Shown here piece after piece: positions 1,365 through 24,895 of a DNA stretch of 50,589 nt (its first letter is position 1; every line of letters begins with the position of its first letter). The stretch is from Minisyncoccota bacterium (GTDB lineage Bacteria > Patescibacteriota > Minisyncoccia > Phycocordibacterales > UBA9973): assembly GCA_021734995.1 (NCBI GenBank), contig JAIPHX010000001.1, positions 1-50,589 on the forward strand. The letters are read 5' to 3'. Under the pieces are notes generated by a model, which was not told the DNA's origin, made no database searches, and was given only the letters and a program-made list of their open reading frames with translations. The position numbers and the translations under genes were made by a program.

Positions 1365-4300
1365 ATGAAAGAAATCAAAAAACCAGAAGGAGATCTAAAG
1401 GAGGCGCAAGGAAATATCGAAGAAGATATTCCTAATCCTTTTTCTTTAGAAATCAAAAGAAAAAAAGAACGAATCAAAAAACTTGAAGCTGAACTAGCCG
1501 AACTAAGAGGTGATGCAGTAGGACAAAAAAATACTGAAGAAGGTGATAAAGAAGCGGTTAGCGATGAAGACAACAAAGAAGCTGAAAAAGGTATCAAAGT
1601 TGAAAAGGTGGGCGAAGAGGCACTTGGTGCGGATGTTGAAGAGCCTACTGAAGTTGGTAGCGATGAAGACAGCAAAGAAGCTGAGAAAAAGCAAAGAACT
1701 GCTACACAGCAACCAGTAACTGGTTTAAAGCCTACAAAATTAACACCTACACAAGGTAAAGAAGAACCAACTAATAATGATGCTAATGCTACTCGCAAGA
1801 AAAATGCTACAAAGGAAGCAAAAGTCTTGAGCAAAGAAGATTTAAAAGCAGAAAAAGAAAAAAAGGGGGAGATTTATGCAGACCTCACAGAAAGATTAAA
1901 ATTTAAATCACTCAAAAATGTTAAAGTGAAAGGGTTGAGCGAAGAAGCACTCCGACTTCAAAGAAGTGTTATTCTTGATATAATGGAGGAAAAAAAGAAC
2001 GAGGAGTCCCTTGCAAAAGGATCTGCGAAAAGGCAACTAAGTAACGACATTGATTCTTTATTAGAATTAAGTCAACAACATACAGAAGAAATAAATAAAA
2101 TAGAGGAAGCTAAACCAAAAGAAGAACAAATAGATCCTAAAACAACAGGCACCTCTGAAGCTACTGGAGATATTAATGGGGCTGACGCGAGAGATATTCC
2201 CCCTCCTGAAGATGGGGTAAGCAGAGGAGCTACTATAGATGGTTCACCTAAAAAACGTAAGGTGTGGCCAGAAGTAAAAAGATTTACAGCTGAATCAGAA
2301 GCACAATACACTAGAGAAGAGTTATTGAACGCCGCGGAAGTTTTATGTCGATACAATAGTGCTGCCTACAAAAATAATGAAGAAGGAAACAAAAAAGCAC
2401 AAACAGCAGCTCTAGAAATGTTGAAAAAAGGATATTCTGAAGATGAAATAAAATTTGCTGTAAAAGTATCTGACACTAGAAAACAATTAGCAGGTATAGA
2501 TAAAGAACTGTCCAGAATAGAACAAGAATATAAAGACGCACTGGACAATTCAGACATAACACCATCTGAAGCAACTGCTAAGTTTAGACAACAACTAGAA
2601 ACTGTAAGGCAAAAGACCTTACATCTACACAATGATTATCATCCTCTTCTTATGGATCTGAAAATTGCAAACATAAGACGCCAGTTTAGAGACATAGAGA
2701 AATATAAAGATCACGATGATTATGAAAAAAAAGCGCTTGAAATTGAGCTTACTGCTAGTTCTATGGTTACAACAGAAGTAGTCAAATGGAATGATGCTGA
2801 TATTTTAAGTCAAAAATATCTAAAAGACGCAGAACTTGCTTCTGAGGGAGTAACAAAAAAGAACATATGGGAAAAAATGGGTAGCTGGTTCTCAAGAACC
2901 TCAGAGAAAGCAGGGGGTGCTTTCAAAAAAGTATTCGGTGGATACATGAAAATGGGACTTGCAAAAAGAATGGGTATTCTTGGGGGAGTCGCTGGAGGAA
3001 TTGCTGCTTTTGTACCAGGAGCAGCTGTCGCTGTAGGATTAGGAACTCTTGGGTATTTTGCAATTAAAGGAATCAGAGCTGTGACTGGATCCATTGTGAC
3101 CTATTGGACTATAAAAAATCTATACATGCCAATAGCAAAAGGAGCATACAAAGGAGATTCAACAAAAACGGCAAATAAACAGAGACAAGAAGTGGTTAAT
3201 TCATCAGCAACTCAAGATCTTTTGAAACTTTCTCGTGAAGAAATGAGTCCAGAAGAAGAAGAGGAAACATTGAGAAGAATTGCATCCAAAAATATAGAAA
3301 TTTCAGAAAGTTTTGTTAAAGAAATCAAAAAGAATGAGAGATTATTCAAAATAAATAGTATTCTTGGATCAATAGTGGTGGGTGCCCTTGTTGGATACGG
3401 TGCAAGAAATGCTTTTGATTATTTAGCTGGTCCAGATGGTCTTGGAATTCTTCATCCTCCAACACCAGGTATAGGAGATGTGGAAAATCCAGACGATGGC
3501 AATGGGCCTGGTACGGGGACTGTCCCTCCTCCTGGTGGAAATGGTCCTGGTACGGGGACTGTCCCTCCTCCTGGTGGAAATGGGCCTGGTACGGGGACTG
3601 TCCCTCCTCCTGGTGGAAATGGGCCTGGTACGGGGACTGTCCCTCCTCCTGGTGGAAATGGGCCTGGTACGGGAACGATACCTGACCTTGAAACAGGGCC
3701 AAGTGGACCTTCAAATCAAGAGATATTAGATGCAGCTACAATTGGAGAAGGAGAAGGAATTGAACATGCACTTATAAGACAGCTAACGTTGGATCCTGAA
3801 AGATTCGGATTTAAAGGAAATATCAATGATCCTCAGGCTGTTAGAGGTTGGGCAGGGGTACATGCACACCTAATTGCTATTGACCAAAAATATGTAAACA
3901 TTGATTCCGGAGCAGAAACAAGAGTGTTTGATATGGGACCAGACGGACCAAAAGGAAATCCTGCATATGTATTAACCTTAGATTCAAATGGAAAACCTTC
4001 TGTGCAAGAATATTTTGAAGGAAAGGGGACAGGAAATGGTGGGTGGAATAGTGTATATGAATATGATTATAGGAATTCAGTATACAAACCAATCTTGGGC
4101 GATGCAGGAGAGGGAGAAACAGTAACAACTCCAACCCAAAATATAGATCTTATAGATGGAAAACAAAATTCAGGGGCTAGTGGAGCAACCGAAGGAACTC
4201 AACAAGGGGGTACTTCCAACCTTGATTCCGTTAAAGGAAAAGGATTAGTAAACCCAGAAGGATTATCTGAAGCAATTAATGAAGATTTAATAAACAGAGC

Positions 4301-4613
4301 TAAAGAAATTGCAAATACGACCATTGATAAAATGTTTCCTGGAGAACAAGGAGAGGCAACATTTAATAATCTAAATGACAATGTCCCTGCCCACACACTA
4401 CTATCAGAAATTCCAAAAGGAATTAATCCAACATTTGCCAATATTGCTTCTTATGTTGATCAATTACACGAAGTAACCGGATTAGAACCAACACAAAGAG
4501 GTTTGCTTGGATTCACCCAAAATGAAACTATCTATGAATACATGTTACGCACAACTATGTATGCACAAGAAAATGGTCTGTTGGATAAAATCCAACCTAT
4601 TATAAATAAATAA
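1365..4613 (+). CDS. Large 1082-aa hypothetical protein (charged N-terminus, coiled coil, Gly/Ala-rich hydrophobic helices, Pro/Gly linker, C-terminal globular domains); candidate secreted effector
   Basis: Long ORF. Hydrophobic segments LGGVAGGIAAFVPGAAVAVGLGTLGYF and ILGSIVVGALVGYG; GNGPGTGTVPPPG repeats. The effector role is inferred. Confidence 0.85.
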   Translation: MKEIKKPEGDLKEAQGNIEEDIPNPFSLEIKRKKERIKKLEAELAELRGDAVGQKNTEEGDKEAVSDEDNKEAEKGIKVEKVGEEALGADVEEPTEVGSDEDSKEAEKKQRTATQQPVTGLKPTKLTPTQGKEEPTNNDANATRKKNATKEAKVLSKEDLKAEKEKKGEIYADLTERLKFKSLKNVKVKGLSEEALRLQRSVILDIMEEKKNEESLAKGSAKRQLSNDIDSLLELSQQHTEEINKIEEAKPKEEQIDPKTTGTSEATGDINGADARDIPPPEDGVSRGATIDGSPKKRKVWPEVKRFTAESEAQYTREELLNAAEVLCRYNSAAYKNNEEGNKKAQTAALEMLKKGYSEDEIKFAVKVSDTRKQLAGIDKELSRIEQEYKDALDNSDITPSEATAKFRQQLETVRQKTLHLHNDYHPLLMDLKIANIRRQFRDIEKYKDHDDYEKKALEIELTASSMVTTEVVKWNDADILSQKYLKDAELASEGVTKKNIWEKMGSWFSRTSEKAGGAFKKVFGGYMKMGLAKRMGILGGVAGGIAAFVPGAAVAVGLGTLGYFAIKGIRAVTGSIVTYWTIKNLYMPIAKGAYKGDSTKTANKQRQEVVNSSATQDLLKLSREEMSPEEEEETLRRIASKNIEISESFVKEIKKNERLFKINSILGSIVVGALVGYGARNAFDYLAGPDGLGILHPPTPGIGDVENPDDGNGPGTGTVPPPGGNGPGTGTVPPPGGNGPGTGTVPPPGGNGPGTGTVPPPGGNGPGTGTIPDLETGPSGPSNQEILDAATIGEGEGIEHALIRQLTLDPERFGFKGNINDPQAVRGWAGVHAHLIAIDQKYVNIDSGAETRVFDMGPDGPKGNPAYVLTLDSNGKPSVQEYFEGKGTGNGGWNSVYEYDYRNSVYKPILGDAGEGETVTTPTQNIDLIDGKQNSGASGATEGTQQGGTSNLDSVKGKGLVNPEGLSEAINEDLINRAKEIANTTIDKMFPGEQGEATFNNLNDNVPAHTLLSEIPKGINPTFANIASYVDQLHEVTGLEPTQRGLLGFTQNETIYEYMLRTTMYAQENGLLDKIQPIINK
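1602..1688 (+). repeat. Diverged copy of the upstream gene's 54-bp repeat and flank, inside the next gene
   Basis: GAAGAGGCACTTGGTGCGGATGTTGAAGAGCCTACTGAAGTTGGTAGCGATGAAGACAGCAAAGAAGCTGAG matches 529-570 plus 1009-1041. Confidence 0.9.
3498..3683 (+). repeat. 39-bp tandem repeat, 4 full copies + 1 partial (GNGPGTGTVPPPG)
   Basis: Units start at 3498, 3537, 3576, 3615 and 3654. Confidence 0.97.
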
Positions 4614-4622
4614 TAAAAAATT

Positions 4623-4931
4623 ATGACTAAAAAAGAAGTAGAGGAAATATTAAAAATAAATATCTTTGAAGAACTTGGCATAGAAAATGCTTCAGTGGAA
4701 CTAAAAAGAGCAATATTAGAAGACTCTGGATATGTTGCAACCCAATCAATATGGATCGCGGTATTAAAAAAACTTTCCACAGATAAACAAGACGAGCTTG
4801 CAACCATGTTGGAAGAAAACCCTGACGACATGGAAAGAATAGCTTCTTTTATCAAAAAAGAAGTTCCTGACCATGAAGATGTTGCAAGGGAAGCTGTTGC
4901 TAAATATAAACAACTTTTATTAGCGCACTAA
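4623..4931 (+). CDS. Small acidic helical protein, DUF5663-like (CPR-associated family)
   Basis: Pattern NIFEELGI...K..ILE..G......IW..VL..LS..KQDEL..ML...I..FI..EVPD, recognised from memory of this family. Confidence 0.6.
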   Translation: MTKKEVEEILKINIFEELGIENASVELKRAILEDSGYVATQSIWIAVLKKLSTDKQDELATMLEENPDDMERIASFIKKEVPDHEDVAREAVAKYKQLLLAH

Positions 4932-4954
4932 TATTTATCGTAGATATACCATAC

Positions 4955-4986
4955 AAAAAAACACTCTCTAAGGGGGGTGTTTTTTT
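4955..4986. terminator. Intrinsic terminator (symmetric)
   Basis: AAAAAAACACTCTC-TAAG-GGGGGTGTTTTTTT hairpin with a U-tract, after the three-gene block. Confidence 0.85.
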
Positions 4987-5029
4987 AAGACAATAAATCT
5001 TACATCAAATATGTTAAGATGATTAAGTA

Positions 5030-6988
5030 ATGCACGACCATTTGCAAAGTTTAAATAACATGCAAAAAAAAGCGGCACTTCATATGAAGGGTCCGCTTTT
5101 GGTTATTGCGGGAGCAGGAGCAGGAAAAACAAAAACTATCACTCATAGAATCATCAATCTCATCAAAGAGGGGATCTCTCCTGACAACATTTTGGCAGTT
5201 ACTTTCACCAACAAAGCAGCGAAAGAAATGCGTGACAGGATCCTTGCTACAATGCAAAACGAAACACAAGGACAAGATTCTGTTCCTTTTATCAGCACAT
5301 TCCATTCTCTTGGTGTATATATTATAAAAGAAAATGCGAGTCTTTTGGGTCTAACAAAATATTTTAATATTTTAGATGAATCTGATGCTATCTCTATTAT
5401 CAAAGAAGCAATCAAAGAATCCAACCTAGATCCAAAACAATACGAACCAAGAAAAATTAAAAATATTATCAGTAGAGAGAAGGGGAATTTTACTGATATG
5501 CTTGAATATAAAAATAGAGGGGACTATATGTCTCAAATTGCTGGAGAAATATGGGAAAAATATGAAAAAAGGAAATCAAATGAAAACAGTCTAGACTTTG
5601 ATGACTTACTAATAAAATCAGTGAAGCTTTTAAAAGAAAATGAACCCGTAAGAAAAACATATCAAGACAAATGGCAATATATACACATAGACGAATATCA
5701 AGACACAAATGAAGTGCAATACTTAATGTCTTCCTTGCTTTCTGCGGAACACAAAAATATCTGTGTAGTAGCAGACCCAGACCAGCTCATCTATGGCTGG
5801 CGTGGTGCAAATCTTCGAAATGTTTTAAATTTTGAAAAAGATTACAAAGGAGCAGAAGTGGTAATGCTTGAAGAAAATTATCGTTCTACTCAAAACATTT
5901 TAGAAGCAGCAAATGAGGTAATCAAAAAAAATAAATACCGACCTGATAAAAAATTATTTACCAAAAACAAAGAAGGAGAAAAAATATCTCTATATGAAGC
6001 AGTAGACGAAGGGGACGAAGCAGATTTTATTGCTACAAAAATTTTAGAGATAATAGACAATGCTAGCGCACAGAATTCCAACAATAATTCTCAGAAGAAT
6101 AGTTTGTCAGAAATAGCTATACTGTACCGTGCTAATTTTCAGTCACGAGTATTAGAAGAAGCTATGCTAAGATACAACATCCCATATCAGGTGCTCGGGG
6201 TAAAATTCTTTGAACGAAAAGAAATCAAAGATACTTTGGCATATCTGCGAGCATCACTAAGCCCAGAAAGTTTGTCAGATATAAAAAGAATTATAAACTT
6301 TCCAAAAAGAGGTATTGGTAAAAGTACCCTAGCTAAAATATTTGCCAAAGACACAGAGAGTCTACCCATAAAAACAAAAATTAAAATAAATAATTTTTAT
6401 AAACTTTTAGAAGATATTAAAGAAAAAATCCAAACAGAAAAGACATCTGAAGTGATAAAATATGCAGTCAAAAAATCTGGTATTGAAGCAGAATTACAGA
6501 ATGGCACAGAGGATGACTTAGAAAGATTGGCAAACATTAAAGAGCTTGTGACTCTTGCTTTGAAGTATGATACTCTACCAGAAAGCAAAGGAGTAGAGAA
6601 GCTTTTAGAAGATGCATCACTCGCCAGTGATCAAGATAGTATTATGCTTATAGAAGAAAAAAATAGCATAAAAAAAGCAGTGCGCTTAATGACAGTCCAT
6701 GCATCAAAAGGATTAGAGTTTAATAATGTTTTCATTACAGGTCTTGAAGATGGGCTTTTCCCAAATCGCAGAGATGGAGAAACCAAAAAAGAAGAAGACA
6801 GGGAAGAAGAACGCCGACTCTTTTATGTAGCTCTAACAAGAGCCCGACATAAATTATATCTCTCTTTTGCAAATTTTCGCACAATCTTTGGATCCAAAAC
6901 AATGAACGCTCCGTCTGAATTTATTTATGATATTCCTGGGGATTTAATAGAGACAGAAGGGGAGAAAGTAAAAACCATATATTTATAA
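5030..6988 (+). CDS. pcrA: ATP-dependent DNA helicase PcrA/UvrD (SF1)
   Basis: AGAGAGKT Walker A, TFTNKAA, DEYQDTN, ENYRST, TVHASKGLEF and EERRLFYVALTRA motifs. Confidence 0.96.
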   Translation: MHDHLQSLNNMQKKAALHMKGPLLVIAGAGAGKTKTITHRIINLIKEGISPDNILAVTFTNKAAKEMRDRILATMQNETQGQDSVPFISTFHSLGVYIIKENASLLGLTKYFNILDESDAISIIKEAIKESNLDPKQYEPRKIKNIISREKGNFTDMLEYKNRGDYMSQIAGEIWEKYEKRKSNENSLDFDDLLIKSVKLLKENEPVRKTYQDKWQYIHIDEYQDTNEVQYLMSSLLSAEHKNICVVADPDQLIYGWRGANLRNVLNFEKDYKGAEVVMLEENYRSTQNILEAANEVIKKNKYRPDKKLFTKNKEGEKISLYEAVDEGDEADFIATKILEIIDNASAQNSNNNSQKNSLSEIAILYRANFQSRVLEEAMLRYNIPYQVLGVKFFERKEIKDTLAYLRASLSPESLSDIKRIINFPKRGIGKSTLAKIFAKDTESLPIKTKIKINNFYKLLEDIKEKIQTEKTSEVIKYAVKKSGIEAELQNGTEDDLERLANIKELVTLALKYDTLPESKGVEKLLEDASLASDQDSIMLIEEKNSIKKAVRLMTVHASKGLEFNNVFITGLEDGLFPNRRDGETKKEEDREEERRLFYVALTRARHKLYLSFANFRTIFGSKTMNAPSEFIYDIPGDLIETEGEKVKTIYL

Positions 6989-6995
6989 AACATTT

Positions 6996-7883
6996 ATGCC
7001 GAAAAAAATTACACAAAAAAGTCTACTGAGGCCAAAAAACATGTATCATAAAGCAAAAAAATCATTGGGACAAAACTTTCTAAAATCAGATGGTATTTTA
7101 AACAAAATAGTTTTAGCAAGTGAACTAAAAATAGATGGGATGACAGATTCACCTGAACTAAAAAAAGGGGAAGAATATACTGTGCTTGAAATAGGTCCTG
7201 GAAAGGGGGCTTTAACCGCAAAGCTATTACAATCAGCCAAAAAAGTGATTGCTATTGAAAAAGATGAGCAATTATTTGCCCTTTTATCAGAAAAATTCTC
7301 AAAAGAGATAGAAGAAGCATCTTTAATCATAGAAAATACTGATATTTTAGACCTAGATACTTCAAAAAGCCCATATTTTAAAAGCCCATATAAAATAGTG
7401 GCAAACATTCCATACAATATAACAGGGGCAATCTTTAAAAAGTTCCTAACCGCCGAGAATAAGCCAAAAAGCATGACTTTACTTGTTCAATATGAAGTAG
7501 CCAAACGAATTATGGCAAGAGATGGCAAAGAAAGCCTGCTCTCTATCTCGGTAAAAGCATACGGCACCCCATCAATGCCCCTAAAAGTCCCAGCTAGGTT
7601 TTTTTCACCAGTGCCAAAGGTGGATTCTGCTGTAATACACATAAAAGATATTTCAGGTGAATTTTTTGCAAAATCACAAGGGGAAAATGATACCGAAGAA
7701 AACTTTTGGGAAGTAGTACGAGCAGGTTTTGCACACAAACGCAAAAAACTAGCGGGAAATCTTAAAAATCTAAAGGACACAAGCTTAAAAAAAGAAGTTC
7801 AAGAAAAACTACTTAGATTAAAGCTTGAAAATGCAAGAGCGGAAGACTTGTCTGTGGAGGACTGGAAAATGCTTGTGGGTTAA
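6996..7883 (+). CDS. rsmA: 16S rRNA m6,2A1518/1519 dimethyltransferase
   Basis: KKSLGQNFL, EIGPGKGALT, ANIPYNIT and PKVDSAV motifs. The start could be the internal Met near 7041. Confidence 0.96.
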   Translation: MPKKITQKSLLRPKNMYHKAKKSLGQNFLKSDGILNKIVLASELKIDGMTDSPELKKGEEYTVLEIGPGKGALTAKLLQSAKKVIAIEKDEQLFALLSEKFSKEIEEASLIIENTDILDLDTSKSPYFKSPYKIVANIPYNITGAIFKKFLTAENKPKSMTLLVQYEVAKRIMARDGKESLLSISVKAYGTPSMPLKVPARFFSPVPKVDSAVIHIKDISGEFFAKSQGENDTEENFWEVVRAGFAHKRKKLAGNLKNLKDTSLKKEVQEKLLRLKLENARAEDLSVEDWKMLVG

Positions 7884-8034
7884 AAAATTTGTAGTAATAA
7901 AAAAAACTAAGAAGGGTCTATAAGCAAGAGATATAGAAAAATTGTAATAAAAAAATAAGCTGGTATCAAATTAGCATAAAGTTAAATAAAAAATTAATAT
8001 CAAGCTAAAACAATTCGCTTCCAAAATAAATTTT

Positions 8035-8043
8035 TGGTATAAT
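8035..8043 (+). promoter_or_regulatory. Extended -10 promoter (TGGTATAAT), probably leaderless, at the head of the secretion cluster
   Basis: TGnTATAAT lies 7 nt before ATG 8051 with no SD. Confidence 0.65.
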
Positions 8044-8050
8044 ATAATTT

Positions 8051-8488
8051 ATGAAGAAAAATATATTTTTACTTTTTTCTATTTTTGCGATTACTTTTAT
8101 GTTTACCTTTGTGTTAACAAAAACAGTGAGCGCTAAGGATGGCTCTTATGTGGGCTTTTTTGGTGGAAAAATATTGGACACCAAATCATTACAAATAAAA
8201 CAACTAGAATATGATGGTTTTGATTGTAGTTATGTCGGGACAACTTTTACAATACAACCTGTTGGGAATTACCCTACAGAATACTATGTTCCTAGAGAAG
8301 TCAAAACCGCGACACAAACCATTGTAAGAGCATCTCAATGGTCTTTGGGAGCATACACAACCAACACAATAATAGATTGTGAAAAAGAAATAGACGCAGA
8401 AAAAGGGGCAGACGCAGAAGATATTGAAATGATGCATGTTGCTGTATCTTTACCAACAATTGTATTGTACGGCACATCCAAACATTAA
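8051..8488 (+). CDS. Small secreted hypothetical protein
   Basis: Signal peptide MKKNIFLLFSIF...TVSA; two Cys; ends LYGTSKH. Confidence 0.8.
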   Translation: MKKNIFLLFSIFAITFMFTFVLTKTVSAKDGSYVGFFGGKILDTKSLQIKQLEYDGFDCSYVGTTFTIQPVGNYPTEYYVPREVKTATQTIVRASQWSLGAYTTNTIIDCEKEIDAEKGADAEDIEMMHVAVSLPTIVLYGTSKH

Positions 8489-8489
8489 A

Positions 8490-9431
8490 ATGAAAACATA
8501 CAAAAAATATTTACCTAGTAAAAATTTTAAAATAATAATGGGTGCAACAATAGGTATACTTTTTTTAGTATTTATTTTTTCAGTAATTTTTCCTATAAAT
8601 GAAATTTTTATATCTAAAACAAACACTGGGTTGGTTCCTAACATAAGAAATATGGATGATTTACTACAATTAGATTCTGATACAGACGGGGTTGCAGATT
8701 GGGAAGAGACATTGTGGGGAACTGACAAAACAAACAAAGAAACTTTTGGAATGCCCGATAGTATTTATATACAAAACAAAAAAAAAGAATTAAATCTTGA
8801 AGAAAACGAAGAGAAGACAATAGCTGAGTTGACAGAAACAGATAAATTTGCAAGAAGCTTCTTCACTAGCTTTGTTGCTCTAAAAGACCAGGGGGAAGAT
8901 TCTTTAATTACTAATTTTGCTAAAAATATGGGGACTAGCATGGTGAGTGCTGAATTACCAACTAAATATTTTGAAGCTGATATTTTAATTAAAGAATTAA
9001 ATACTCTAGAGAGTAAAAATGCATACTACGAAAAAGCAAAAACACTATTTGAAAAATACAAAGAGGCTGGTATTGGTAAAGAAATAAATATTATAGCCAA
9101 AAACATGGTTGAGTCTGAGAAAACCAATAATTTTGAAGACACCAAAGGATACCAAGAACTTTTACCGACTGGTGATGCTTATATTACCTTTGCTAAAGAA
9201 TTATCAAAAATAGAAACCCCAAAAAGTTTATCAAAAATACATCTAGACATATTAAACGGGGCACACAACACAGGATTATCTGTTTTAAATATGCAAAAAA
9301 TGATTCTAGACCCCATTGCTGGATTATCAGGGATATCCCAATATCAAAAATATAGTAAAGAATTAATTTCTGGCGTATTAGAACTTGAAAAAATACTTTC
9401 AAAAGAAACTGAAGGTGATATAATACAATAA
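8490..9431 (+). CDS. Membrane-anchored protein with a Ca-binding DxDxDG (thrombospondin type 3-like) motif
   Basis: Start reassigned to ATG 8490, just after the upstream stop. N-terminal TM helix; DSDTDGVADWEE..WGTD. Confidence 0.78.
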   Translation: MKTYKKYLPSKNFKIIMGATIGILFLVFIFSVIFPINEIFISKTNTGLVPNIRNMDDLLQLDSDTDGVADWEETLWGTDKTNKETFGMPDSIYIQNKKKELNLEENEEKTIAELTETDKFARSFFTSFVALKDQGEDSLITNFAKNMGTSMVSAELPTKYFEADILIKELNTLESKNAYYEKAKTLFEKYKEAGIGKEINIIAKNMVESEKTNNFEDTKGYQELLPTGDAYITFAKELSKIETPKSLSKIHLDILNGAHNTGLSVLNMQKMILDPIAGLSGISQYQKYSKELISGVLELEKILSKETEGDIIQ

Positions 9432-9436
9432 GTAAA

Positions 9437-12385
9437 ATGAACGGAATACATCTCAATAAAAATACTTTTATATCTTTTGCAATAATAACAAGCATTGTAT
9501 TTTCTCCTGTAATTTTAATTCCTAAAAAAACAAATGCTCAATCTATGGGAGCTTATGCAGCAACCCCTGGAGCAATAGCTACTATATTACCATTGTGTCA
9601 AGACTTTATAGGAGATGTGGGGAGTAGCATTAGTGGGTTGTTTTCATCCAAAAAAACTGACGCTATAGCTAATATACAAGCTGCTACAGATCCTAGCGCT
9701 GGAAAACTTTCAGTACCTTCCCCAAATGAATTAACGGGAGGGAAGAAAAGTACCAAAGAAGCAGCTAGTACAGGTCTTGCCACAACAAGAAATACAGTAT
9801 TAAGTCTTGAAAATGCTGTTCCGGTTAATCTTGGACCGGAAACTATTCAAGACATAAAAGACACAAAAAAGGATACCGAGGAAATAAAAAAGAATGTTGA
9901 AAAAGACAGTGCTTCTTATCGATGCCTTTCAGGTGTTGCGAAAACACTCATAAGAATTACATACCAAAGAATAACTCTAGCTACTATTGAATGGATAAAT
10001 TCAGGAATGAATGGCAAACCGGCTTTTATGACAGAACCTGGTGGTTTTTGGAAAGAGATACGCAATAGAGAATTTCTATCTTTTGGGTATGACATAAGTG
10101 ATCCAGAGAGTTTTCCTTTTGGAAAAAAATGGTTAAGAAAACAAGCTGTTGCTTTAAACAAACAGTTTAAAAACAACGCTAAGTACTCATTAGATGAGCT
10201 TACAAAAAGATCCTACCCAGACTTTAAAAGCCAAGAATTTTATGCAGACTTTAGCCATGGTGGTTGGAACGCTTGGTTGAATATGACACAAAATCCTTAT
10301 AATAATCCTCTGGGTTTTGATATACATGCATCCGAAGAATTAAGTAAATTACTCACAGGAACTGACAAATCAGCGGGGGAGGTGTTACAAGATTCTCTAA
10401 ATCAATCAGGTGGTTTTTTTGGCGATGAACGTTGTGTGAATCCAAAAGGATTAACAAGGCAAGAAGATTTAAAAGCCAAGAAAGAAGGGACAGGAGACAT
10501 TTGTACAAAATGGGAATACGTAACTCCAGGCAAACTTATTGCAGAGAAAGCTACAAAAATCGGAGATTATGATCTAGATATGCTGTGGATGAGCGCTGAT
10601 GATTTCAATAGTGCTATGGGGGCTCTCACAGATTCTCTTCTAGCACATTATTCACAAAAATACATAGACGAAGGGTTTGTTGACTTTACTAAATCTATTG
10701 ACCCAAATGCTATATATACAGGTGGTTATATTCTAGAACCATCCCAGACAGAGAAAGATTTCAATTTTAGTTATTTAAGTAATTCTTGGTTAAAATCTAA
10801 TCCAGACTTTAATATAAGAAAAGACCTAACCCAAGCGCTAGTGGATGAGCAGAGGACATATTTAAACAAAATCAAAGAACAAAACAAAGAATTACTTTAT
10901 GTAAATGGTGGAAATTACAAATTTACCAATGGGGTATCTAATGCTACAGGTTTAATCCCTACAATATATCAACTTGACTATTGTATCCCTGGGCCACATC
11001 CTGGATGGGAAAATGATTCAAGAGAAAGTTTGAATGCTGTCTTAGAAACTATTGTACCTCAAACCGCTGCCAACCTTGAAAAGGTTACCGAATATGATAT
11101 GTATCAGATGGCAAAATCAATGTCTGCGACAATTACTACTTCTATTATTAATTATAAAAATGGAGAACTCTTAGGTAAAACCTTGAGTGCCTTTTCTGGA
11201 CCTATTGGGATTCTGGCTGGTTTCGGTGTCCAAGCATTAATAGAGTCTATTTGGGGGGATAACAATCCAAGCCCAGCAACAAAGTTATTGGCTTATTATG
11301 GTGGTCTCATCCTGGGCATGACTGGAATGTTGCCTGATGTTAAGAATGCCACAGACAGCACGATAGTAAACTATACAACTAAATATGGTGTCTCTCAAGG
11401 TATGCATACATTACTTACTAGGTATGGTTTTATTATGAAGTTAACCTATGAAAACCAAAAATCATACACTCCACAACTATGGAATTTAAAATTTGAATCT
11501 AACACAAAATTTGAAGAAGTGACCGGATACCATTTTATGCTTGACAAAAACAAAGAAAAAGTTGGTAAGATGGAAAAAACAATTAAAGATTTGGTAGAAA
11601 TCAAAACATTCATTGACAACTTAAATATTCAACTTGAAAACCAAAGCATGAATCTTGATGAATATGAGACTCAGCTTGTCCCTTACAGAGCAAAGTTTGA
11701 AAGAGTTTCAAACGAAATGGTAAACGGAGCAGATATTGCTGTGGTAGATAGTTTGAATAAACAAATAATAGAGGAGAAGGATTATATATATAATTACTTA
11801 CTTAAGGGTGAGGATGGTTGCGAAAAACTTATGGAATCTCCACAACCTCCATTCCCTTATCCATGGAACGGAACACACAAATACTCAGATGGGTTTGATG
11901 TAAGATCTGTGCTTAGGGCTGTTTATCCAATACAACTACCTATCCTTTATGATTATCAATCTTTTGATATAGTAAAACCTGCAGTTGATTATTCATTGCG
12001 TGCTACATACCCTGATCCATTAAATAGAAATTTAACCACCAAAGTCCCTTACGCAGATGATGTAAATTATGTAAAAAAAGGATCAAACTATTGCCGTGAT
12101 ACACAACTAATATCAAATGGTTGCCGTTTTAGAGAAAGAGAATTTGGACCAGGATTCTTAAGTTTTGTATACTGGTCTGCAGGATATGTAAAAGATGATA
12201 ACAAAAGCACTGCAGAAAATAATGATTGGTATGAACATGTGCGTGGCCCTCAAAGATTACACATTCACGATATATTTGGTATAAAAGAGGAACAGGAAAC
12301 GAGATATTCAAGTGTTGGTCAAAAAAGAAAAAAAACCTCTCATGATACTGGTGGTGTTTTTGAAACTATTATTGGAATTTATTAA
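9437..12385 (+). CDS. Large secreted hypothetical protein of the T4SS-like cluster
   Basis: Signal peptide ending ..KTNA/Q; internal Gly-rich hydrophobic segment GPIGILAGFGVQAL; coiled coil; translationally coupled in the cluster. Confidence 0.8.
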   Translation: MNGIHLNKNTFISFAIITSIVFSPVILIPKKTNAQSMGAYAATPGAIATILPLCQDFIGDVGSSISGLFSSKKTDAIANIQAATDPSAGKLSVPSPNELTGGKKSTKEAASTGLATTRNTVLSLENAVPVNLGPETIQDIKDTKKDTEEIKKNVEKDSASYRCLSGVAKTLIRITYQRITLATIEWINSGMNGKPAFMTEPGGFWKEIRNREFLSFGYDISDPESFPFGKKWLRKQAVALNKQFKNNAKYSLDELTKRSYPDFKSQEFYADFSHGGWNAWLNMTQNPYNNPLGFDIHASEELSKLLTGTDKSAGEVLQDSLNQSGGFFGDERCVNPKGLTRQEDLKAKKEGTGDICTKWEYVTPGKLIAEKATKIGDYDLDMLWMSADDFNSAMGALTDSLLAHYSQKYIDEGFVDFTKSIDPNAIYTGGYILEPSQTEKDFNFSYLSNSWLKSNPDFNIRKDLTQALVDEQRTYLNKIKEQNKELLYVNGGNYKFTNGVSNATGLIPTIYQLDYCIPGPHPGWENDSRESLNAVLETIVPQTAANLEKVTEYDMYQMAKSMSATITTSIINYKNGELLGKTLSAFSGPIGILAGFGVQALIESIWGDNNPSPATKLLAYYGGLILGMTGMLPDVKNATDSTIVNYTTKYGVSQGMHTLLTRYGFIMKLTYENQKSYTPQLWNLKFESNTKFEEVTGYHFMLDKNKEKVGKMEKTIKDLVEIKTFIDNLNIQLENQSMNLDEYETQLVPYRAKFERVSNEMVNGADIAVVDSLNKQIIEEKDYIYNYLLKGEDGCEKLMESPQPPFPYPWNGTHKYSDGFDVRSVLRAVYPIQLPILYDYQSFDIVKPAVDYSLRATYPDPLNRNLTTKVPYADDVNYVKKGSNYCRDTQLISNGCRFREREFGPGFLSFVYWSAGYVKDDNKSTAENNDWYEHVRGPQRLHIHDIFGIKEEQETRYSSVGQKRKKTSHDTGGVFETIIGIY

Positions 12386-12391
12386 CTTAAA

Positions 12392-15300
12392 ATGAACACA
12401 AAAAAAACATTATTTATATGGACAGTTTTATTGGTAATTTTTTTGTTATTACCTCAAAAAATTGTTGCTCAATATTCCCCAGATTTTTTCAACGTTGAAC
12501 CAATATCAAATTATTCAAAAGACTACACTATAAAAACAAAGAGTAATTTTAATTTAAAATTTCAAATCCAAAACGGATTTACTGGGCACCCCGAAGAATT
12601 AAATTACTTACCGTCATATCCCCCTCGCCCAGAACGTAATTCAAAGATCCTAGGTTATTTAGATATAAACAATATAAACTATGATATTGATTCTGTCTTC
12701 CCAGAATCAACACGTAATGTCCTATGGCGTCTGAATGTCCCAATGTCAAAAAGAGGATTTACAGATCCAGCAATGTACCCAGCCCAAAGAAGCGAGTGTA
12801 CAAGCGGTGAATCCTTTTGCAATAGGTGGAATTTTAATTCAAACTATCACTATTATGTACCTGGATATTACCCACTATACGTAGACCCAATTCATTTAGG
12901 TGGTGCTGTCGATCATATGAGTTTTTACCAATACTTAAGTCCTACAACAAGTGTAAGAGACTATAAAATAGACAAAAAGTTTCTTTTCAAAAAAGCGCTA
13001 GAAGCAGATCCTGAAAATACTTACATAAAGTTGTCTTCGTGGGGGTCTTCGGCTGGGGAAATTTCCACCTCATATTATGGATATTTCTATTCAAATATTG
13101 AACTAACCCTTAAAATAGATAAAAACTGGCAAGCAAAACAATTAAATTATCTCCCAAATACAGAAAATATTTTAGACACAGAAGAAATATTCCCTTTTGT
13201 CCAAAACAGTAACGAAAGATCTCTAATTTACTATGGTTCTGATTTTGGAGTTTCATTTCCAATAATGTTTAAAACTAATAAGGTTAAACTCACTGGAATA
13301 AAAGAAAATTTGAGCTTCCTTATAGATAGACAAAAAGTTTCAAATTTAAAATCAGGTTTATATAAACTTCATTGGAGAATGCAACCCTGTTTTGCAACAA
13401 TACCATTATCCTATGGTCCTTTTACAAACACAGAATACCCAGTTTGCAACGAAGAAACAAACTTAATGATAAAAGGAGTTGAAGATATAAATTTTTTTGT
13501 GTTAAATTGTGATACTGACCCCAATAGATGCAATGTTGCAGATGCCTGCATAGGCTCACTCTTTTATGATTGGGATACAAATAGTTGTCTTGAGGGTGAC
13601 TTCGAGAAATTATGCGGAGAAAATCCAAATCACGCAGTATGCCTTAATTTAGGCTATGATGTAGAAAGTAAACTTCAAGTTACTACAAAAGATATGTGCC
13701 AAAGAACCTCAAGTTTTGTTGACTTAGAGGCTTCAGATGATACTCCTAGACCCTCTAGGATTCAAGAAAGTTGTGAAAATGCAGATGTTTGGGCCACAAT
13801 GAGAGGACAAGTGTTTTCTGATACTTTATTCCCAGAATTGCCAGTTACTACATATTTTAGATATTCTTCCCAACACATATATCCACCTCTATATTGTAAT
13901 GACATATATGGCACAAACATGATTGCTACCAAAGATATCAAAATCCCAGCAGGAACAACTCCAAAAGATTTTTATATTAGAGTCAACAATCTGAAACCAA
14001 ACACAAAATATTACTACTGCGCCATCGCCTCAAACAAGGCAGGGATTAAATATGGAGAGGTTAAAAGTTTTACTACATTTCCTTTGTATACAACAGTAAA
14101 AGCTGAGGGGTCTGAGGTAGTGAACCCAACTTCGGTTTATGTAAAAGGATCCTTTAATACAATGAAAGAGATAAAAACATATTTTGAATACAAAAAGCAA
14201 AACAGTAATAGTTTAGTAGGAATGTGGCTTGATTTATTGGATAATATTACAATAAGAAATACAAGGGAAAGTTCTTGGATTAAAGTAGGAGAAAAAACTC
14301 AAAAACCAAAAAACTACAACAACGCTCACGGTGAAACAAATTTTAGAATCTCTGACCTAGAACAATCTTCTAAATACATATTTAGATTTGTAGCCGAAGA
14401 AACTGAAACAAATAAAAAAGTGGTTAGTAATACTCTTGAGTTTGAAACACCCGCTGGGCCAGTAGTAATTTCTTGTGAGACACAGGGAACATGCCCTCCA
14501 GAAACAACAACTCGCCCTCTAGACTTATCAGCAGAAGGAGTCTATCCGAAAATACTAAATATAGATGGTATCATGTCCCTCACTTCAAAAATAAACAATT
14601 TAGGAGATGAATATTCAGGTGGAGACCAGAATCCATTTGCAGAAATTGTACAAGACTTTTTATCTCATACATTTCAAATAAATAAAGGGGATGGGATTGT
14701 TGATATCAACGCCTCTACAGAAGTTTTAGAGGTGAAGACAGAAGGAATTCAAGGAAGGGGAACAGCCGAAATAAGCATTGAACCTAAAGCAAACGCTGGA
14801 GATATTCTCACAGTAAGAGCTTGCGCCAGCTTGGCTGGAGAAAGAGACACTAACCCAAGCAACAACTGTGGATATTGGTCAATAGTTAGAATTATGTGTC
14901 CTGTTGAACAATATTTCAATTCTACAACCAACACTTGTGTTGGTCCAAATACTTGTGCTGAAAATGAAATATTCCACTGGCCGACAAAAACATGTGTTGT
15001 TAAAGCACAATGTGACCCTGAAAAAGAAGTATATATATCATGGAGCAATACTTGTATCCCGAAATCTATCAATTGCCCAACAGGAAGTACCGACCCTTTC
15101 TGTTTACCTGGGCCTGGTTGGGGTGGCGGTAGTGGTGGAGGTGGTGGTGAATGGAGTGGTGGTGGATGGGATGATGATGATTGGCATGGTGGCACATGGA
15201 CAGGTAGCAACGGAAATCAATGGTGTGGTGGTGTGTGGAGAAATGGAGTATGGACAGGAGGAGGATGGTGCAATCAAAATGCGGGAATTCCTCCAAATGA

Positions 15301-15637
15301 TGCCCTTGTAAGACAAGGTGAGGGGGTTGAACATGTATTTGTAAGGCAAATAATGAATAATCCAACACTGCAACAAAGATATGGATTTAACCCAACAAAA
15401 AATATCAACACTTTCGCTTGGGATATGGCACATTTACTTGCAAAAATACTAGGTTATGTTGGCAAGGAAGGGAAAGAAATTAGAGTAAGTATGCCAAACA
15501 TAGCAGCTTATGAACTTCGCCTCACAGACAATGGTCTAAATGTATATGAATATTACAACAACAAAATCATAAGTATTCAAAAAGTAATCCCTGTATTAAA
15601 AAACAAAGCAAGTTACGAATATTATTTCAAAAAATAA
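12392..15637 (+). CDS. Large secreted adhesin-like protein (two Fn3-like domains, CARDB/Ig-like domain, Cys-rich repeats, Gly/Trp-rich linker, C-terminal GEG(I/V)EH domain)
   Basis: Signal peptide; NNLKPNTKYYY...GEVKSFTT and SDLEQSSKYIFR...FET (Fn3-like); DTNPSNNC; repeated TxTCV. Confidence 0.82.
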   Translation: MNTKKTLFIWTVLLVIFLLLPQKIVAQYSPDFFNVEPISNYSKDYTIKTKSNFNLKFQIQNGFTGHPEELNYLPSYPPRPERNSKILGYLDINNINYDIDSVFPESTRNVLWRLNVPMSKRGFTDPAMYPAQRSECTSGESFCNRWNFNSNYHYYVPGYYPLYVDPIHLGGAVDHMSFYQYLSPTTSVRDYKIDKKFLFKKALEADPENTYIKLSSWGSSAGEISTSYYGYFYSNIELTLKIDKNWQAKQLNYLPNTENILDTEEIFPFVQNSNERSLIYYGSDFGVSFPIMFKTNKVKLTGIKENLSFLIDRQKVSNLKSGLYKLHWRMQPCFATIPLSYGPFTNTEYPVCNEETNLMIKGVEDINFFVLNCDTDPNRCNVADACIGSLFYDWDTNSCLEGDFEKLCGENPNHAVCLNLGYDVESKLQVTTKDMCQRTSSFVDLEASDDTPRPSRIQESCENADVWATMRGQVFSDTLFPELPVTTYFRYSSQHIYPPLYCNDIYGTNMIATKDIKIPAGTTPKDFYIRVNNLKPNTKYYYCAIASNKAGIKYGEVKSFTTFPLYTTVKAEGSEVVNPTSVYVKGSFNTMKEIKTYFEYKKQNSNSLVGMWLDLLDNITIRNTRESSWIKVGEKTQKPKNYNNAHGETNFRISDLEQSSKYIFRFVAEETETNKKVVSNTLEFETPAGPVVISCETQGTCPPETTTRPLDLSAEGVYPKILNIDGIMSLTSKINNLGDEYSGGDQNPFAEIVQDFLSHTFQINKGDGIVDINASTEVLEVKTEGIQGRGTAEISIEPKANAGDILTVRACASLAGERDTNPSNNCGYWSIVRIMCPVEQYFNSTTNTCVGPNTCAENEIFHWPTKTCVVKAQCDPEKEVYISWSNTCIPKSINCPTGSTDPFCLPGPGWGGGSGGGGGEWSGGGWDDDDWHGGTWTGSNGNQWCGGVWRNGVWTGGGWCNQNAGIPPNDALVRQGEGVEHVFVRQIMNNPTLQQRYGFNPTKNINTFAWDMAHLLAKILGYVGKEGKEIRVSMPNIAAYELRLTDNGLNVYEYYNNKIISIQKVIPVLKNKASYEYYFKK

Positions 15638-15719
15638 TAAAAATACTTTATTAAAAACTTAAAAAGTTATATAATGTGTGTGTGACCCTAAGAACTTTTT
15701 TGAGTTTTTATAAAAAAAA

Positions 15720-18431: not shown

Positions 18432-18458
18432 AAAATTATAAATTAACAATATAAACAT

Positions 18459-19058
18459 ATGGAAGTTACAATAGAAGAAATACAACAACAATTTGATACT
18501 TTACCAGAAGAATTAAAACTGGCCATTATTGATATCAATATTGATGATAAAATAATAGAGATAGGTAATAATCACAATTTAACAGTTGGCCAAATCCAAC
18601 AGCTCTCTTTGGAGGTGCATGTGCATGCTTATGGTATGTTACCTATGGAAGGGATGCAACAATCCATTCAAGACAGTTTAAAATTAGAACCAGAAAAAAC
18701 CAAAACAATTGTGGAGGAGATAAATGAAAAGATATTTATTCCAATAAGAAAAAATATGCAAGAAGAGGAAGTTGAGACAGAAGGAGGGGGGGAAGAAAAT
18801 AAAAATATTAAAAATACTAATCTACAAGAAACAGAAGAAAAATTAAAAAATCCTAATACTGAACAAGAGCAGATCACAAATATTATTAACCAAAAACTGG
18901 TAAATGGATTTAAAGCTCAGACTTCTATATCAGAACACAATTTAAACAATATCAAACCTCCTACAAGCACACCAAGCCCAACTCCTGAGACAAAAAATGT
19001 AGAAACACAATCAAGCACAGACTTGAAAACAGACCCATACAGAGAATTACCTGAATAA
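18459..19058 (+). CDS. Conserved hypothetical protein (helical N-domain, disordered tail ending DPYRELPE)
   Basis: LPEELKLAI...INEKIFIPIR; position in the cluster. Confidence 0.75.
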   Translation: MEVTIEEIQQQFDTLPEELKLAIIDINIDDKIIEIGNNHNLTVGQIQQLSLEVHVHAYGMLPMEGMQQSIQDSLKLEPEKTKTIVEEINEKIFIPIRKNMQEEEVETEGGGEENKNIKNTNLQETEEKLKNPNTEQEQITNIINQKLVNGFKAQTSISEHNLNNIKPPTSTPSPTPETKNVETQSSTDLKTDPYRELPE

Positions 19059-19120
19059 ATCTCACAAAAAATTATCAAGGGGATTACATAATAATCTTTC
19101 AATGATATAATAATATCAAG

Positions 19121-19528
19121 ATGCAATTTAAGGTACCCCAATTTTTAGATATAGAAGATAAAATATTTGGTCCATTCACCTTCAAACAGTTTGTATACTT
19201 AGTGGGAGGTGCTGGGCTATGTTATATTTTATTCAAACTACTTGGATTTTTAATTGGAGCAATACCAATATTAATAGTGGGATCCATTTCTTTGGCCCTA
19301 GCTTTCTATCGACCAAATGGAAAACCTTTTATAAACATGCTTGAAGCTGCTTTAAAATATACAATTCAGAGCAAGCTCTATATTTGGCAAAAATACAAAG
19401 ATGCAAAAAAAGAAACCAGAAAAGACCCTAGAGAAATACAAACAGAAGAAAGGGGAAGCCCTAAGCTAACAACAAACAGACTTAAGGATTTAGCATGGAG
19501 TCTGGATGTATTAGATAAAAAAAATTAA
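19121..19528 (+). CDS. prgI: PrgI-family (VirB3-like) membrane protein
   Basis: VPQFLDIEDKIFGPFTFKQF motif; two TM helices. Confidence 0.85.
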   Translation: MQFKVPQFLDIEDKIFGPFTFKQFVYLVGGAGLCYILFKLLGFLIGAIPILIVGSISLALAFYRPNGKPFINMLEAALKYTIQSKLYIWQKYKDAKKETRKDPREIQTEERGSPKLTTNRLKDLAWSLDVLDKKN

Positions 19529-19529
19529 T

Positions 19530-20174
19530 ATGGCATTAAAAGCAAAAACAACTCAAGAGTTTGTCCCTATAAAAGAAATCCGAGATGGGATTATTGTTTT
19601 AAAAGATGGTGGAATGAGAGCAATAGTGCTAGCCAATTCTGTTAATCTGTCTTTAAAATCAGATGAAGAACAGAGAGCTACTATATTCCAATTCCAAGGA
19701 TTTTTAAACACTTTAGACTTCCCAATCCAAATATCTGTTCAATCAAGAAGACTCAATATCAAGCCATACATAGCTACTTTAGAGAATAGGATGCGAGTTC
19801 AAAATGAACCATTATTAAAAATACAGACCAAAGAATATATCGATTTTATAAGGACATTTACAGAGCAAGTAAGTATTATGACAAAAAACTTTTTTATCAT
19901 TGTCTCTTACTCAGACACTTCTATAATGCCTAAAGGAAATTTTCTTGAAGAGCTTTTTGCAAAAAAAAGCAAAGAAGAGCTCCGAAAAAAAGAGGAGTTA
20001 GATTTTGAAGAAAAAAGATCTCAACTTGAAGAAAGAGTAAGTGTAATAAGACAAGGACTATCTCGTTGCGGAATTCAATCAGCTCAACTTGGTACAGAAG
20101 AAGCCATAGAAGTATTCTACAAAGTATTCAATCCTGGAGAAACAGAGGGCAAAATAAACACAAGTAATATATAA
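19530..20174 (+). CDS. TraC/VirB4 N-terminal-like accessory protein
   Basis: VNLSLKSDEEQ...FQGFLNTLDFPIQISVQSRRL; lies between prgI and the ATPase. Confidence 0.7.
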   Translation: MALKAKTTQEFVPIKEIRDGIIVLKDGGMRAIVLANSVNLSLKSDEEQRATIFQFQGFLNTLDFPIQISVQSRRLNIKPYIATLENRMRVQNEPLLKIQTKEYIDFIRTFTEQVSIMTKNFFIIVSYSDTSIMPKGNFLEELFAKKSKEELRKKEELDFEEKRSQLEERVSVIRQGLSRCGIQSAQLGTEEAIEVFYKVFNPGETEGKINTSNI

Positions 20175-20181
20175 TCATTAT

Positions 20182-22017: not shown

Positions 22018-22051
22018 GTTTTTTATTTTATAAAAATGTTATAATAAAAAG

Positions 22052-23038: not shown

Positions 23039-23043
23039 TAAAA

Positions 23044-24894: not shown

Positions 24895-24895
24895 A

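Follow-up and report, generated by a model that had tools for sequence, protein, structure and literature searches.

A candidate envelope domain family of Patescibacteria, its pairing with an OmpA-like gene, and its possible role as a sortase-independent anchor on a surface protein of a type IV secretion gene cluster

A stretch of 50,589 nucleotides from the genome of a Minisyncoccota bacterium (contig JAIPHX010000001.1; the whole stretch is referred to here as the window) encodes two large proteins, P0003 and P0004, that are otherwise unrelated and share one domain. P0003 is composed of a charged N-terminal half, hydrophobic segments, a Gly/Pro-rich linker, the domain, and a tail of ~195 amino acids. 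P0004 begins with a probable signal peptide, which is followed by a region resembling FN3 and Ig-like domains, a Cys-rich part, a linker rich in Gly and Trp, and the domain, which occupies the C-terminus. The gene for P0004 is located within a cluster that encodes a monoderm-type type IV secretion system (T4SS). Both segments represent copies of a single family of uncharacterised domains that are ~115 amino acids long. We propose this family as a candidate envelope domain of Patescibacteria, which in its smallest carriers is paired with an OmpA-like protein and in P0004 is a candidate sortase-independent anchor of a surface protein encoded in the T4SS cluster. The coordinates of these features are listed in Table 1.

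Alignment of the two copies with BLASTP yielded 33 identities over 97 positions (34%; E 2e-10). When P0003 and P0004 were compared over their entire lengths, the domain was the sole significant alignment (E 2e-7) and the next best had an E value of 4.1. The Smith-Waterman score of the two copies was 94, compared with 24.3 +/- 4.3 in 5000 shuffles (maximum 49); none of the 5000 reached 94 (z ~16). The BLASTP E value and the shuffle test together rule out chance similarity, and both bear out a preliminary description of this DNA, made from the letters alone, in which it was first pointed out that two large proteins, unrelated in other respects, have a domain in common. Its translations of both copies were accurate, as was its remark that a Gly-rich linker precedes the domain in each carrier. 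The core of the domain was also placed correctly, whereas the ends were not, since the conserved unit continues to a terminal YEY motif. A third copy was found neither in the six-frame translation of the window (two-copy profile) nor in the whole genome of 789,278 bases, which is 97% complete (family profile), and a word-index search with copy 2 returned only copy 2 itself.

Table 1. Features of the window that are discussed in the text. Classes are defined in the text; L014 and L016 are loci from the same genus. ORF, open reading frame; pLDDT, predicted local distance difference test; pTM, predicted template modelling score.
Feature	Position	Strand	Basis and remarks
Carrier 1, P0003, 1082 amino acids, class 1	1365..4613	+	ORF, translation; full-length orthologues P0005-P0011
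P0003 hydrophobic segments, probable membrane spans	2970..3398	+	Residues 536-567 and 660-678; Kyte-Doolittle scan
Tandem repeat, 39 bp x 4.5, 97% matches	3497..3673	+	Tandem Repeats Finder; encodes GNGPGTGTVPPPG repeats of the linker before copy 1
Domain copy 1, core	3729..4022	+	P0003 residues 789-886; alignment, AlphaFold model (pLDDT 78.5)
YEY motif, copy 1	4056..4064	+	Y898-E899-Y900; family alignment frequencies, consensus
DUF5663-like acidic ORF, 102 amino acids	4623..4931	+	Pfam PF18908, E 9.8e-5, just under cut-off
Monoderm-type T4SS gene cluster, includes carrier 2	8051..26155	+	Pfam; hydropathy; gene order as in L014 and L016
Carrier 2, P0004, 1081 amino acids, class 2	12392..15637	+	Weak FN3-type matches; orthologues in same place in L014 and L016
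P0004 probable Sec signal peptide	12392..12472	+	Residues 1-27, hydrophobic segment 2-27; cleavage site inferred
Gly/Trp-rich low-complexity linker before copy 2	15110..15298	+	~Residues 907-969; translation
Domain copy 2, core	15299..15562	+	P0004 residues 970-1057; alignment, AlphaFold model (pLDDT 83.3, pTM 0.77)
YEY motif, copy 2	15614..15622	+	Y1075-E1076-Y1077, four residues before C-terminus
Polytopic 903-amino-acid protein	15720-18431		T4SS cluster; hydropathy
PrgI	19121-19528		T4SS cluster; Pfam
VirB4-type ATPase (VirB4/TraG-type)	20182-22017		T4SS cluster; Pfam
SLT hydrolase	23044-24894		T4SS cluster; Pfam

An exhaustive HMMER search of 1.84 billion representative proteins with the two-copy profile identified 578 proteins at E <= 1e-3, 311 of them at E <= 1e-10. 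Each representative stands for a cluster at 50% identity, and the family thus comprises at least 578 clusters. Where labels are present, the proteins are designated "hypothetical protein" and the organisms Candidatus Nomurabacteria, Paceibacterota, Parcubacteria, Buchananbacteria, Falkowbacteria, Saccharibacteria, or "Patescibacteria group". Two metagenome-assembled genomes labelled "uncultured Gammaproteobacteria bacterium" also encode carriers of the P0003 type (L018 and L027), which could reflect mis-binning, mislabelling, or real transfer. The distribution of the family is rare and patchy. Members were found in 7 of 401 species-representative genomes sampled across the phylum and in 5 of 401 sampled across the class; the latter are G000, three of the five other species of the window's genus, and a genome from one unrelated genus. 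Genome G000 encodes two carriers and G256 three, while many genomes encode only one.

The preliminary description did not recognise the domain, and searches of Pfam, NCBIfam, PHROGs, PADLOC, and the sequences of the PDB likewise gave it no name. Neither copy matched a Pfam family at E <= 1. No consistent match was obtained with NCBIfam, PHROGs, or PADLOC; those to NCBIfam and PHROGs were weak and scattered, involving no more than 3 of 36 members per family at E values of 2e-4 or above. Among PDB sequences, a 2-row profile retrieved only haemoglobin beta chain (E 0.011) and a 36-row profile gave 0 matches. The ESM Atlas provided no usable match for the domain, and we found no mention of the motif string "GEGIEH" in the literature searched. 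Pfam families covered the domain in none of 72 carriers scanned except for a single weak Copper-bind match in P0072 (residues 145-220; E 2.2e-4; bit score 22.0, cut-off 21.2). P0072 is a small carrier, and the match, to the plastocyanin/azurin family, overlaps the beta part in the C-terminal half of the domain together with the tail. As it occurs in 1 of 72 carriers, it is probably due to chance.

Three architectures account for the 156 members compared. Class 1 (82 of 156), to which P0003 belongs, has hydrophobic segments in the interior of the protein, then a linker and the domain, and finally a tail of 150-500 amino acids; a hydrophobic segment precedes the domain in 48 of the 82. Class 2 (45 of 156) resembles P0004, with an N-terminal signal-type segment (37 of 45), a linker, and the domain at the extreme C-terminus. 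FN3-type matches were detected in 31 of 41 class 2 carriers scanned and CARDB matches in 5. Class 3 (29 of 156) consists of small carriers of ~180-300 amino acids that have a hydrophobic segment at the N-terminus (17 of 29 at the threshold used), followed by a linker, the domain, and a short tail. Overall, a hydrophobic segment lies before the domain in 106 of 156 proteins and after it in 0 of 156, and the 40 residues upstream of the domain are richer in G, P, S, T, A, N, and D than the whole protein in 132 of 151. Because the domain follows a signal peptide or membrane segment and a linker and is never found in front of a membrane segment, its most probable location is on the outer side of the cytoplasmic membrane. 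Within class 2, sequence identity is 51-59% in the domain compared with 36-38% in the rest of the carrier; the corresponding values for class 1 are 35-43% and 23-34%. Wall-binding Pfam modules of other kinds were not detected in the 72 carriers scanned.

A tree of the domain alone (FastTree only; 156 sequences, 114 columns) contains clades that track architecture. One unites 40 class 2 with 5 class 3 members (support 0.959) and another 20 class 3 with 1 class 1 and 4 class 2 members (0.959). The architecture label changes 17 times on this tree, whereas in 500 shuffles the number of changes averaged 63.7 and was at least 55; because labels are shared among related sequences, this comparison exaggerates their independence. 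The two copies in the window are separated by 3.57 substitutions per site, whereas each lies ~0.8 from its nearest relatives of the same class. Because the copies sit in two old, well-supported subfamilies that follow architecture, the domain appears to have been recruited into different carriers long ago. A shuffled module had been suggested; recent shuffling between the two loci of the window is at odds with this topology.

The structure of copy 2 (P0004 residues 955-1081) was predicted by AlphaFold2 from a 36-row alignment. The model, with a mean pLDDT of 83.3 and a pTM of 0.77, contains helices at residues 979-988, 991-996, and 1005-1020, followed by three antiparallel strands (1038-1045, 1048-1055, and 1058-1065) and a disordered YEY tail. 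An independent model of the P0003 copy, calculated from a different, 15-row alignment (pLDDT 78.5, pTM 0.73), has the same order of helices, a beta-hairpin, and a disordered tail; the two copies are thus not predicted to differ in fold. The models predict an alpha+beta fold in which three helices precede a beta-meander. In the copy 2 model, DSSP assigned isolated beta-bridges to positions 18 and 24 and to positions 69, 75, and 77 (model numbering). From these we infer packing of the GEG turn against the G-x-E-x-R-V segment, an arrangement that would gather the conserved Glu, Arg, and Gln residues.

This fold is probably novel, a weak or missing match being no proof of newness. Foldseek searches of the PDB with the two models gave best E values of 0.37 and 0.15 and template modelling scores of no more than 0.27. 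Against 48,161 chains, the best Z scores from VIA-align were 4.0 and 3.3; the program's own guide cites 7-8 as the typical best Z for unmatched models. A search of viral folds in BFVD gave a best E value of 0.056. Weak rows common to both models were 7r6s_B, helical subdomains of ABC transporters, and the XVIPCD structure 7mu9. These rows identify nothing, and because identical ones are listed for both models, the two models agree with one fold. Chain 7r6s_B, a putative bacteriophage protein of Stenotrophomonas maltophilia (residues ~215-300), is the best VIA-align row in both cases, with a Z of 4.0 (root-mean-square deviation 4.2, 73 residues aligned) and 3.3 (3.7, 66 aligned) and 8-9% identity, which is below the trustworthy threshold.

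A resemblance of the start of the domain to a LysM-like turn, seen at first inspection, was not supported. LysM is a beta-alpha-alpha-beta module of ~44 amino acids, whereas the domain described here extends over ~90, ordered in the models as H-H-H-E-E-E. The Pfam search that failed to match either copy at E <= 1 argues against it as well, and a true LysM protein of the window's genome was detected at E 1.5e-12. LysM chains are absent among the fold matches listed, which does not exclude LysM.

Residue frequencies were determined over the 156 best members and are given in P0004 numbering. The consensus reads A-x5-(E)G-x-E(H)-x3-RQ ... G(F/Y) ... A-x3-A(H/D)-x2-A-x3-GY(V) ... G-x-E-x-RV ... AY-x-L ... 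E(Y) ... YEY. Near-invariant positions are G978 (100%), Q986 and G998 (99%), E1029 and A1017 (97%), R985, A1013, and Y1022 (96%), E980, Y1040, and G1027 (95%), E977 and E1076 (90%), and R1031 and E1053 (89%). The YEY motif (Y 79%, E 90%, Y 80%) follows the core after a spacer whose length varies; in class 2, the tail that follows the core has a constant length of 24-25 amino acids and ends in a sequence resembling YEYYFKK. Two histidines had been considered as potential metal ligands. The first, in the "EH" motif (H801 of P0003, H981 of P0004), is conserved in 77% of members (T in 16%, N in 3%), and the second, in the "AH" motif (H835 and H1014), in 70% (D in 26%, Y in 3%). Because both positions vary to this extent, a metal site built from histidines throughout the family is unsupported.

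The small carriers of class 3 have the most informative gene context. Their gene is directly preceded by a gene of one family in 9 of 9 independent loci in which an upstream gene is visible, namely L021, L025 (=L046), L029 (=L052), L032, L037, L039, L044, L049, and L053; the upstream region of L038 is cut by the contig edge. The neighbours are homologous to each other (phmmer E 1e-11 to 1e-69). In each, a signal peptide is followed by an OmpA-like domain that contains the usual N-D-x-L-x3-R-A motif, then by a single membrane segment and a tail in the cytoplasm. The Pfam OmpA family was matched at E <= 1e-3 by 5 of 8 full-length neighbours, and 4 exceeded the curated cut-off. Genes for wall synthesis and division surround the pair. 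A Mur ligase is encoded directly upstream in 4 loci and an S11 D-Ala-D-Ala carboxypeptidase a few ORFs downstream in 4; MraZ-MraW-x-penicillin-binding protein, FtsW-MurG, and a penicillin-binding protein were each seen at one locus. This arrangement points to an undescribed envelope gene pair that forms a strictly conserved two-gene unit. The pairs are located at L021:8880-10420, L025:8942-10423, L029:8470-10456, L032:1912-3533, L037:41-1955, L039:2951-4798, L044:1313-3135, L049:2572-4064, and L053:3-1080. The cytoplasmic tail of the OmpA-like neighbour has a conserved stretch of ~90 amino acids with an S-P-F ... SLKGCLK motif, and a second, larger protein of the OmpA family is encoded in two of the small-carrier loci. 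The loci were collected with the peptide patterns GEGIEH[AV][LF]I (genomes) and EGIEH[AV][LF]I (metagenomes), which represent one subfamily; because the patterns are confined to it, no class 2 contexts from outside the window's genus were obtained.

The preliminary description placed P0004 among Sec-exported proteins of the T4SS cluster, in agreement with its N-terminal signal-type segment and with the Pfam families of its neighbours. Besides the proteins listed in Table 1, the cluster encodes several unnamed secreted proteins, and it adjoins yidC, rnpA, dnaA, and dnaN. In loci L014 and L016, from two species of the same genus, the genes are arranged in the same way and the P0004 orthologue has 940 or 524 amino acids; in L015, from a third species of this genus, the T4SS cluster is present without a P0004-type carrier. 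No sortase (PF04203) was matched in the 97%-complete genome of the window, whereas control genomes did match. The available text of PMC12102498 on patescibacterial T4SS clusters describes them as related to the MPF-FATA type and often located near dnaA, as is the case in the window. The same text states that no PrgB-like adhesins were detected in these clusters, and it contains no mention of the domain.

Other features of this region were noted. Between positions 8051 and 31417, the T4SS cluster stops ~2.5 kb from the origin region with yidC-rnpA-dnaA-dnaN. P0004 is flanked by a secreted protein of 982 amino acids (9437-12385) and by the polytopic protein of 903 amino acids. Both are retained in the clusters of the same genus (E 1e-170 and 1e-128 to 1e-152), and no Pfam family is assigned to either. 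The possibility that the 982-amino-acid neighbour is a paralogue of P0004 was rejected by comparison.

P0003 was not assigned to a Pfam, NCBIfam, or PADLOC family, and a search of the ESM Atlas with residues 290-700 retrieved only "hypothetical protein" clusters with scores <= 0.81. As had been noted, the protein lacks an N-terminal signal peptide. Its characterisation as effector-like does not follow, however, because the internal hydrophobic segments at residues 536-567 and 660-678, which probably span the membrane, make it resemble a membrane protein rather than a soluble effector. Its topology would be N-in/C-out. The 39-bp repeat in its linker is a likely place of length variation.

Gene neighbourhood and architecture lead us to suggest, tentatively, that the domain is an extracytoplasmic module for wall association or anchoring. 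Such a non-catalytic module would hold its carrier at the cell's own wall, with the cluster of near-invariant Glu, Arg, and Gln residues binding peptidoglycan or a wall-bound component. Its simplest form would be a small protein anchored in the membrane, whose gene directly follows one for an OmpA-like membrane protein that binds peptidoglycan and lies close to genes for murein synthesis and division. In the window's genome, the module would have been recruited long ago into two larger proteins. The C-terminal copy would serve as wall anchor of P0004, a Sec-secreted FN3-array protein of the T4SS cluster, because P0004 is exported, has no other retention device, and is encoded in a genome that gave no sortase match. 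P0003 is probably a membrane protein and has a DUF5663-like ORF as its partner; there, the domain would be carried on a Gly/Pro stalk outside the membrane. An anchor is preferred over a variable host-binding tip because the domain is the best-conserved part of fast-changing carriers, and the gene contexts likewise point to the cell's own wall rather than to a host surface.

A more far-reaching scenario, which we consider unlikely in its entirety, is that the domain has a new fold and constitutes a new, Patescibacteria-specific class of wall-binding module. Under this scenario, it would have arisen as part of a two-protein tether between membrane and wall, together with the OmpA-like partner encoded by division and murein genes, and would later have become the sortase-independent anchor of an FN3 adhesin-like protein in a T4SS cluster.

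Several observations weigh against a wall-anchoring role. The functional assignment is drawn from gene neighbourhood and architecture, and the strongest contextual clue comes from another subfamily, because searches with PF00691, a protein query, and the family hidden Markov model detected no OmpA-like partner in the window's genome or the genomes of four related carriers (G256, G591, G747, and G426). Carriers of classes 1 and 3 would already be anchored in the membrane and would need no further anchor. The rarity of the family in the phylum and class samples is odd for a module that binds a universal polymer. Known wall-binding modules showed no likeness to the domain in the fold searches, the YEY tail, though conserved, is disordered in each of the two models, and the positive-inside check of small carriers gave 8 of 18.

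The domain could alternatively be a docking or oligomerisation module whose partner is the OmpA-like neighbour or another copy of the domain. In a variant of this model, the flexible YEY tail might add a strand to a neighbouring copy and thereby assemble carriers into one envelope complex. The strict pairing with an OmpA-like membrane protein (9 of 9 loci) is consistent with docking, as are the occurrence of two or three carriers in some genomes and the properties of the YEY motif, which is conserved, separated from the core by a variable spacer, and undocked in both monomer models (pLDDT <50). We nevertheless regard docking as somewhat improbable, given that the partner was missing from the searches of the five genomes named above and that many genomes have a single carrier. 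In addition, near-invariant charged residues would be more in keeping with a ligand of fixed chemistry than with a protein surface that co-evolves.

The preliminary description favoured a host-surface binding module that mediates T4SS attachment and links the two loci into one attachment or delivery system. P0004 does reside in a T4SS cluster, in two genomes of the same genus as well as in the window, its class carries adhesin-like FN3 and CARDB arrays, and the patchy distribution of the family could reflect host specificity; the adhesin role also appears vacant, according to the text of PMC12102498 cited above. Binding to a host is nonetheless doubtful. The domain is the most conserved, not the most variable, part of its carriers, and in P0004 it occupies the end near the linker, the usual position of an anchor. 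In small carriers, which occur in murein and division rather than T4SS neighbourhoods, the domain is ~40-110 residues away from the membrane anchor, a reach that would be too short to extend far beyond the cell's own envelope. The notion of a single T4SS-linked system is not supported: housekeeping genes lie between the two loci, many genomes have only one carrier, the T4SS cluster of L015 does without one, and most family members are found outside T4SS contexts.

A small wall-acting enzyme, such as a glycosidase or transglycosylase that depends on Glu, or a hydrolase that depends on a metal, would account for the near-invariant E977, E980, and E1029, which are accompanied by R985 and Q986, and for the murein-metabolism neighbours. 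We consider this explanation highly improbable, since both histidines vary, the core of ~90 amino acids is small and forms a terminal module behind linkers, and no likeness to lysozyme-like, SLT, amidase, or peptidase families was detected by sequence or fold. Finally, a C-terminal T4SS secretion signal recognised by the coupling protein, like the XVIPCD of Xanthomonas T4SS effectors (7mu9), is scarcely credible: the two domains are alike in size (~100-120 amino acids), mixed helix/strand content, C-terminal position, and T4SS linkage, 7mu9 was among the weak top rows (Z 3.5, root-mean-square deviation 5.0, 79 aligned; Z 3.1, 4.7, 70 aligned), and a TrwB-like gene follows the carrier in L017, but the Z scores fall far below the tool's guide for noise and are tied with unrelated rows, identity is 5-13%, XVIPCD is cytoplasmic whereas Sec signals or signal anchors (in class 2, 37 of 45) would put the domain outside the cytoplasm and beyond the coupling protein, and most family members are not near T4SS genes.

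If the domain is a wall anchor, its closest functional parallels would be LysM (PF01476), SLH, WxL, and choline-binding-type repeats, which are likewise conserved modules that end variable secreted proteins or lie near their anchor. LysM-type wall modules also follow flexible linkers and occur in several architectures; a shared mode of action is only proposed here. The domain differs from all four in that it has no sequence match to them and is present as one copy per protein rather than as repeats. With OmpA-like domains (PF00691), the domain shares an extracytoplasmic, membrane-proximal location, and in the small carriers the two are encoded in tandem. The OmpA-like domain is a neighbour and not a homologue: neither the copies nor the carriers match PF00691, which was not found in the window's genome. 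LPXTG-anchored adhesins of the PrgB/PrgC type belong to monoderm conjugative T4SSs. Like these adhesins, P0004 is large, secreted, and built of repeats, and its gene lies inside a T4SS cluster of the monoderm type (PrgI/VirB4). However, homology to LPXTG adhesins is absent, the C-terminal membrane segment is lacking (0 of 156), no sortase was found, and the domain occupies the C-terminus.

Patescibacteria constitute a large share of bacterial diversity, and how they retain surface proteins and make T4SS contact is largely obscure. A widespread family without a name marks three sets of envelope proteins in these organisms, and its small, confidently modelled domain offers a handle on them. The FN3 protein of the P0004 type is a candidate for a PrgB-like adhesin role in this genus. 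If the anchoring role is true, the domain would be the sortase-independent anchor of an adhesin-like T4SS protein, a component that published surveys, in the portions cited here, had not detected.

The DUF5663-like ORF downstream of P0003 is present in a single copy in the window's genome, and such an ORF adjoins a class 1 carrier in 8 independent loci (by our own count, ~21 class 1 loci have a visible neighbour). We found no mention of "DUF5663" in the literature searched. These ORFs encode acidic proteins of ~100 amino acids without a hydrophobic segment and are located downstream of the carrier in 5 loci and upstream in 3; those outside the window lie at L013:12050-12352, L015:11190-11492, L023:2835-3146, L028:5259-5582, L030:5713-6030, L033:46-372, and L047:550-870. 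The order P0003-type carrier, DUF5663-like ORF, UvrD, KsgA recurs in the window, L015, L028 (=L048), and L030. T4SS genes come after KsgA in the window, L015, and L028; the L030 contig stops at KsgA.

Other class 1 carriers have a neighbour of the OmpA family (L018), a nearby M23/LysM peptidase (L013), or alanine racemase and FtsQ nearby (L017). In relatives, some housekeeping genes close to carriers are interrupted by inteins. The UvrD of G747 (L016:16397-19264) has an Intein_splicing match, and at L018:15926-19789 a GyrA with an intein and a LAGLIDADG endonuclease is encoded near the carrier. The gene of a class 1 carrier in G426 precedes one for a TrwB/VirD4-like coupling protein (L017:12210-14678 and L017:16751-18505), and a large serine recombinase encoded nearby hints at a mobile-element setting at L017.

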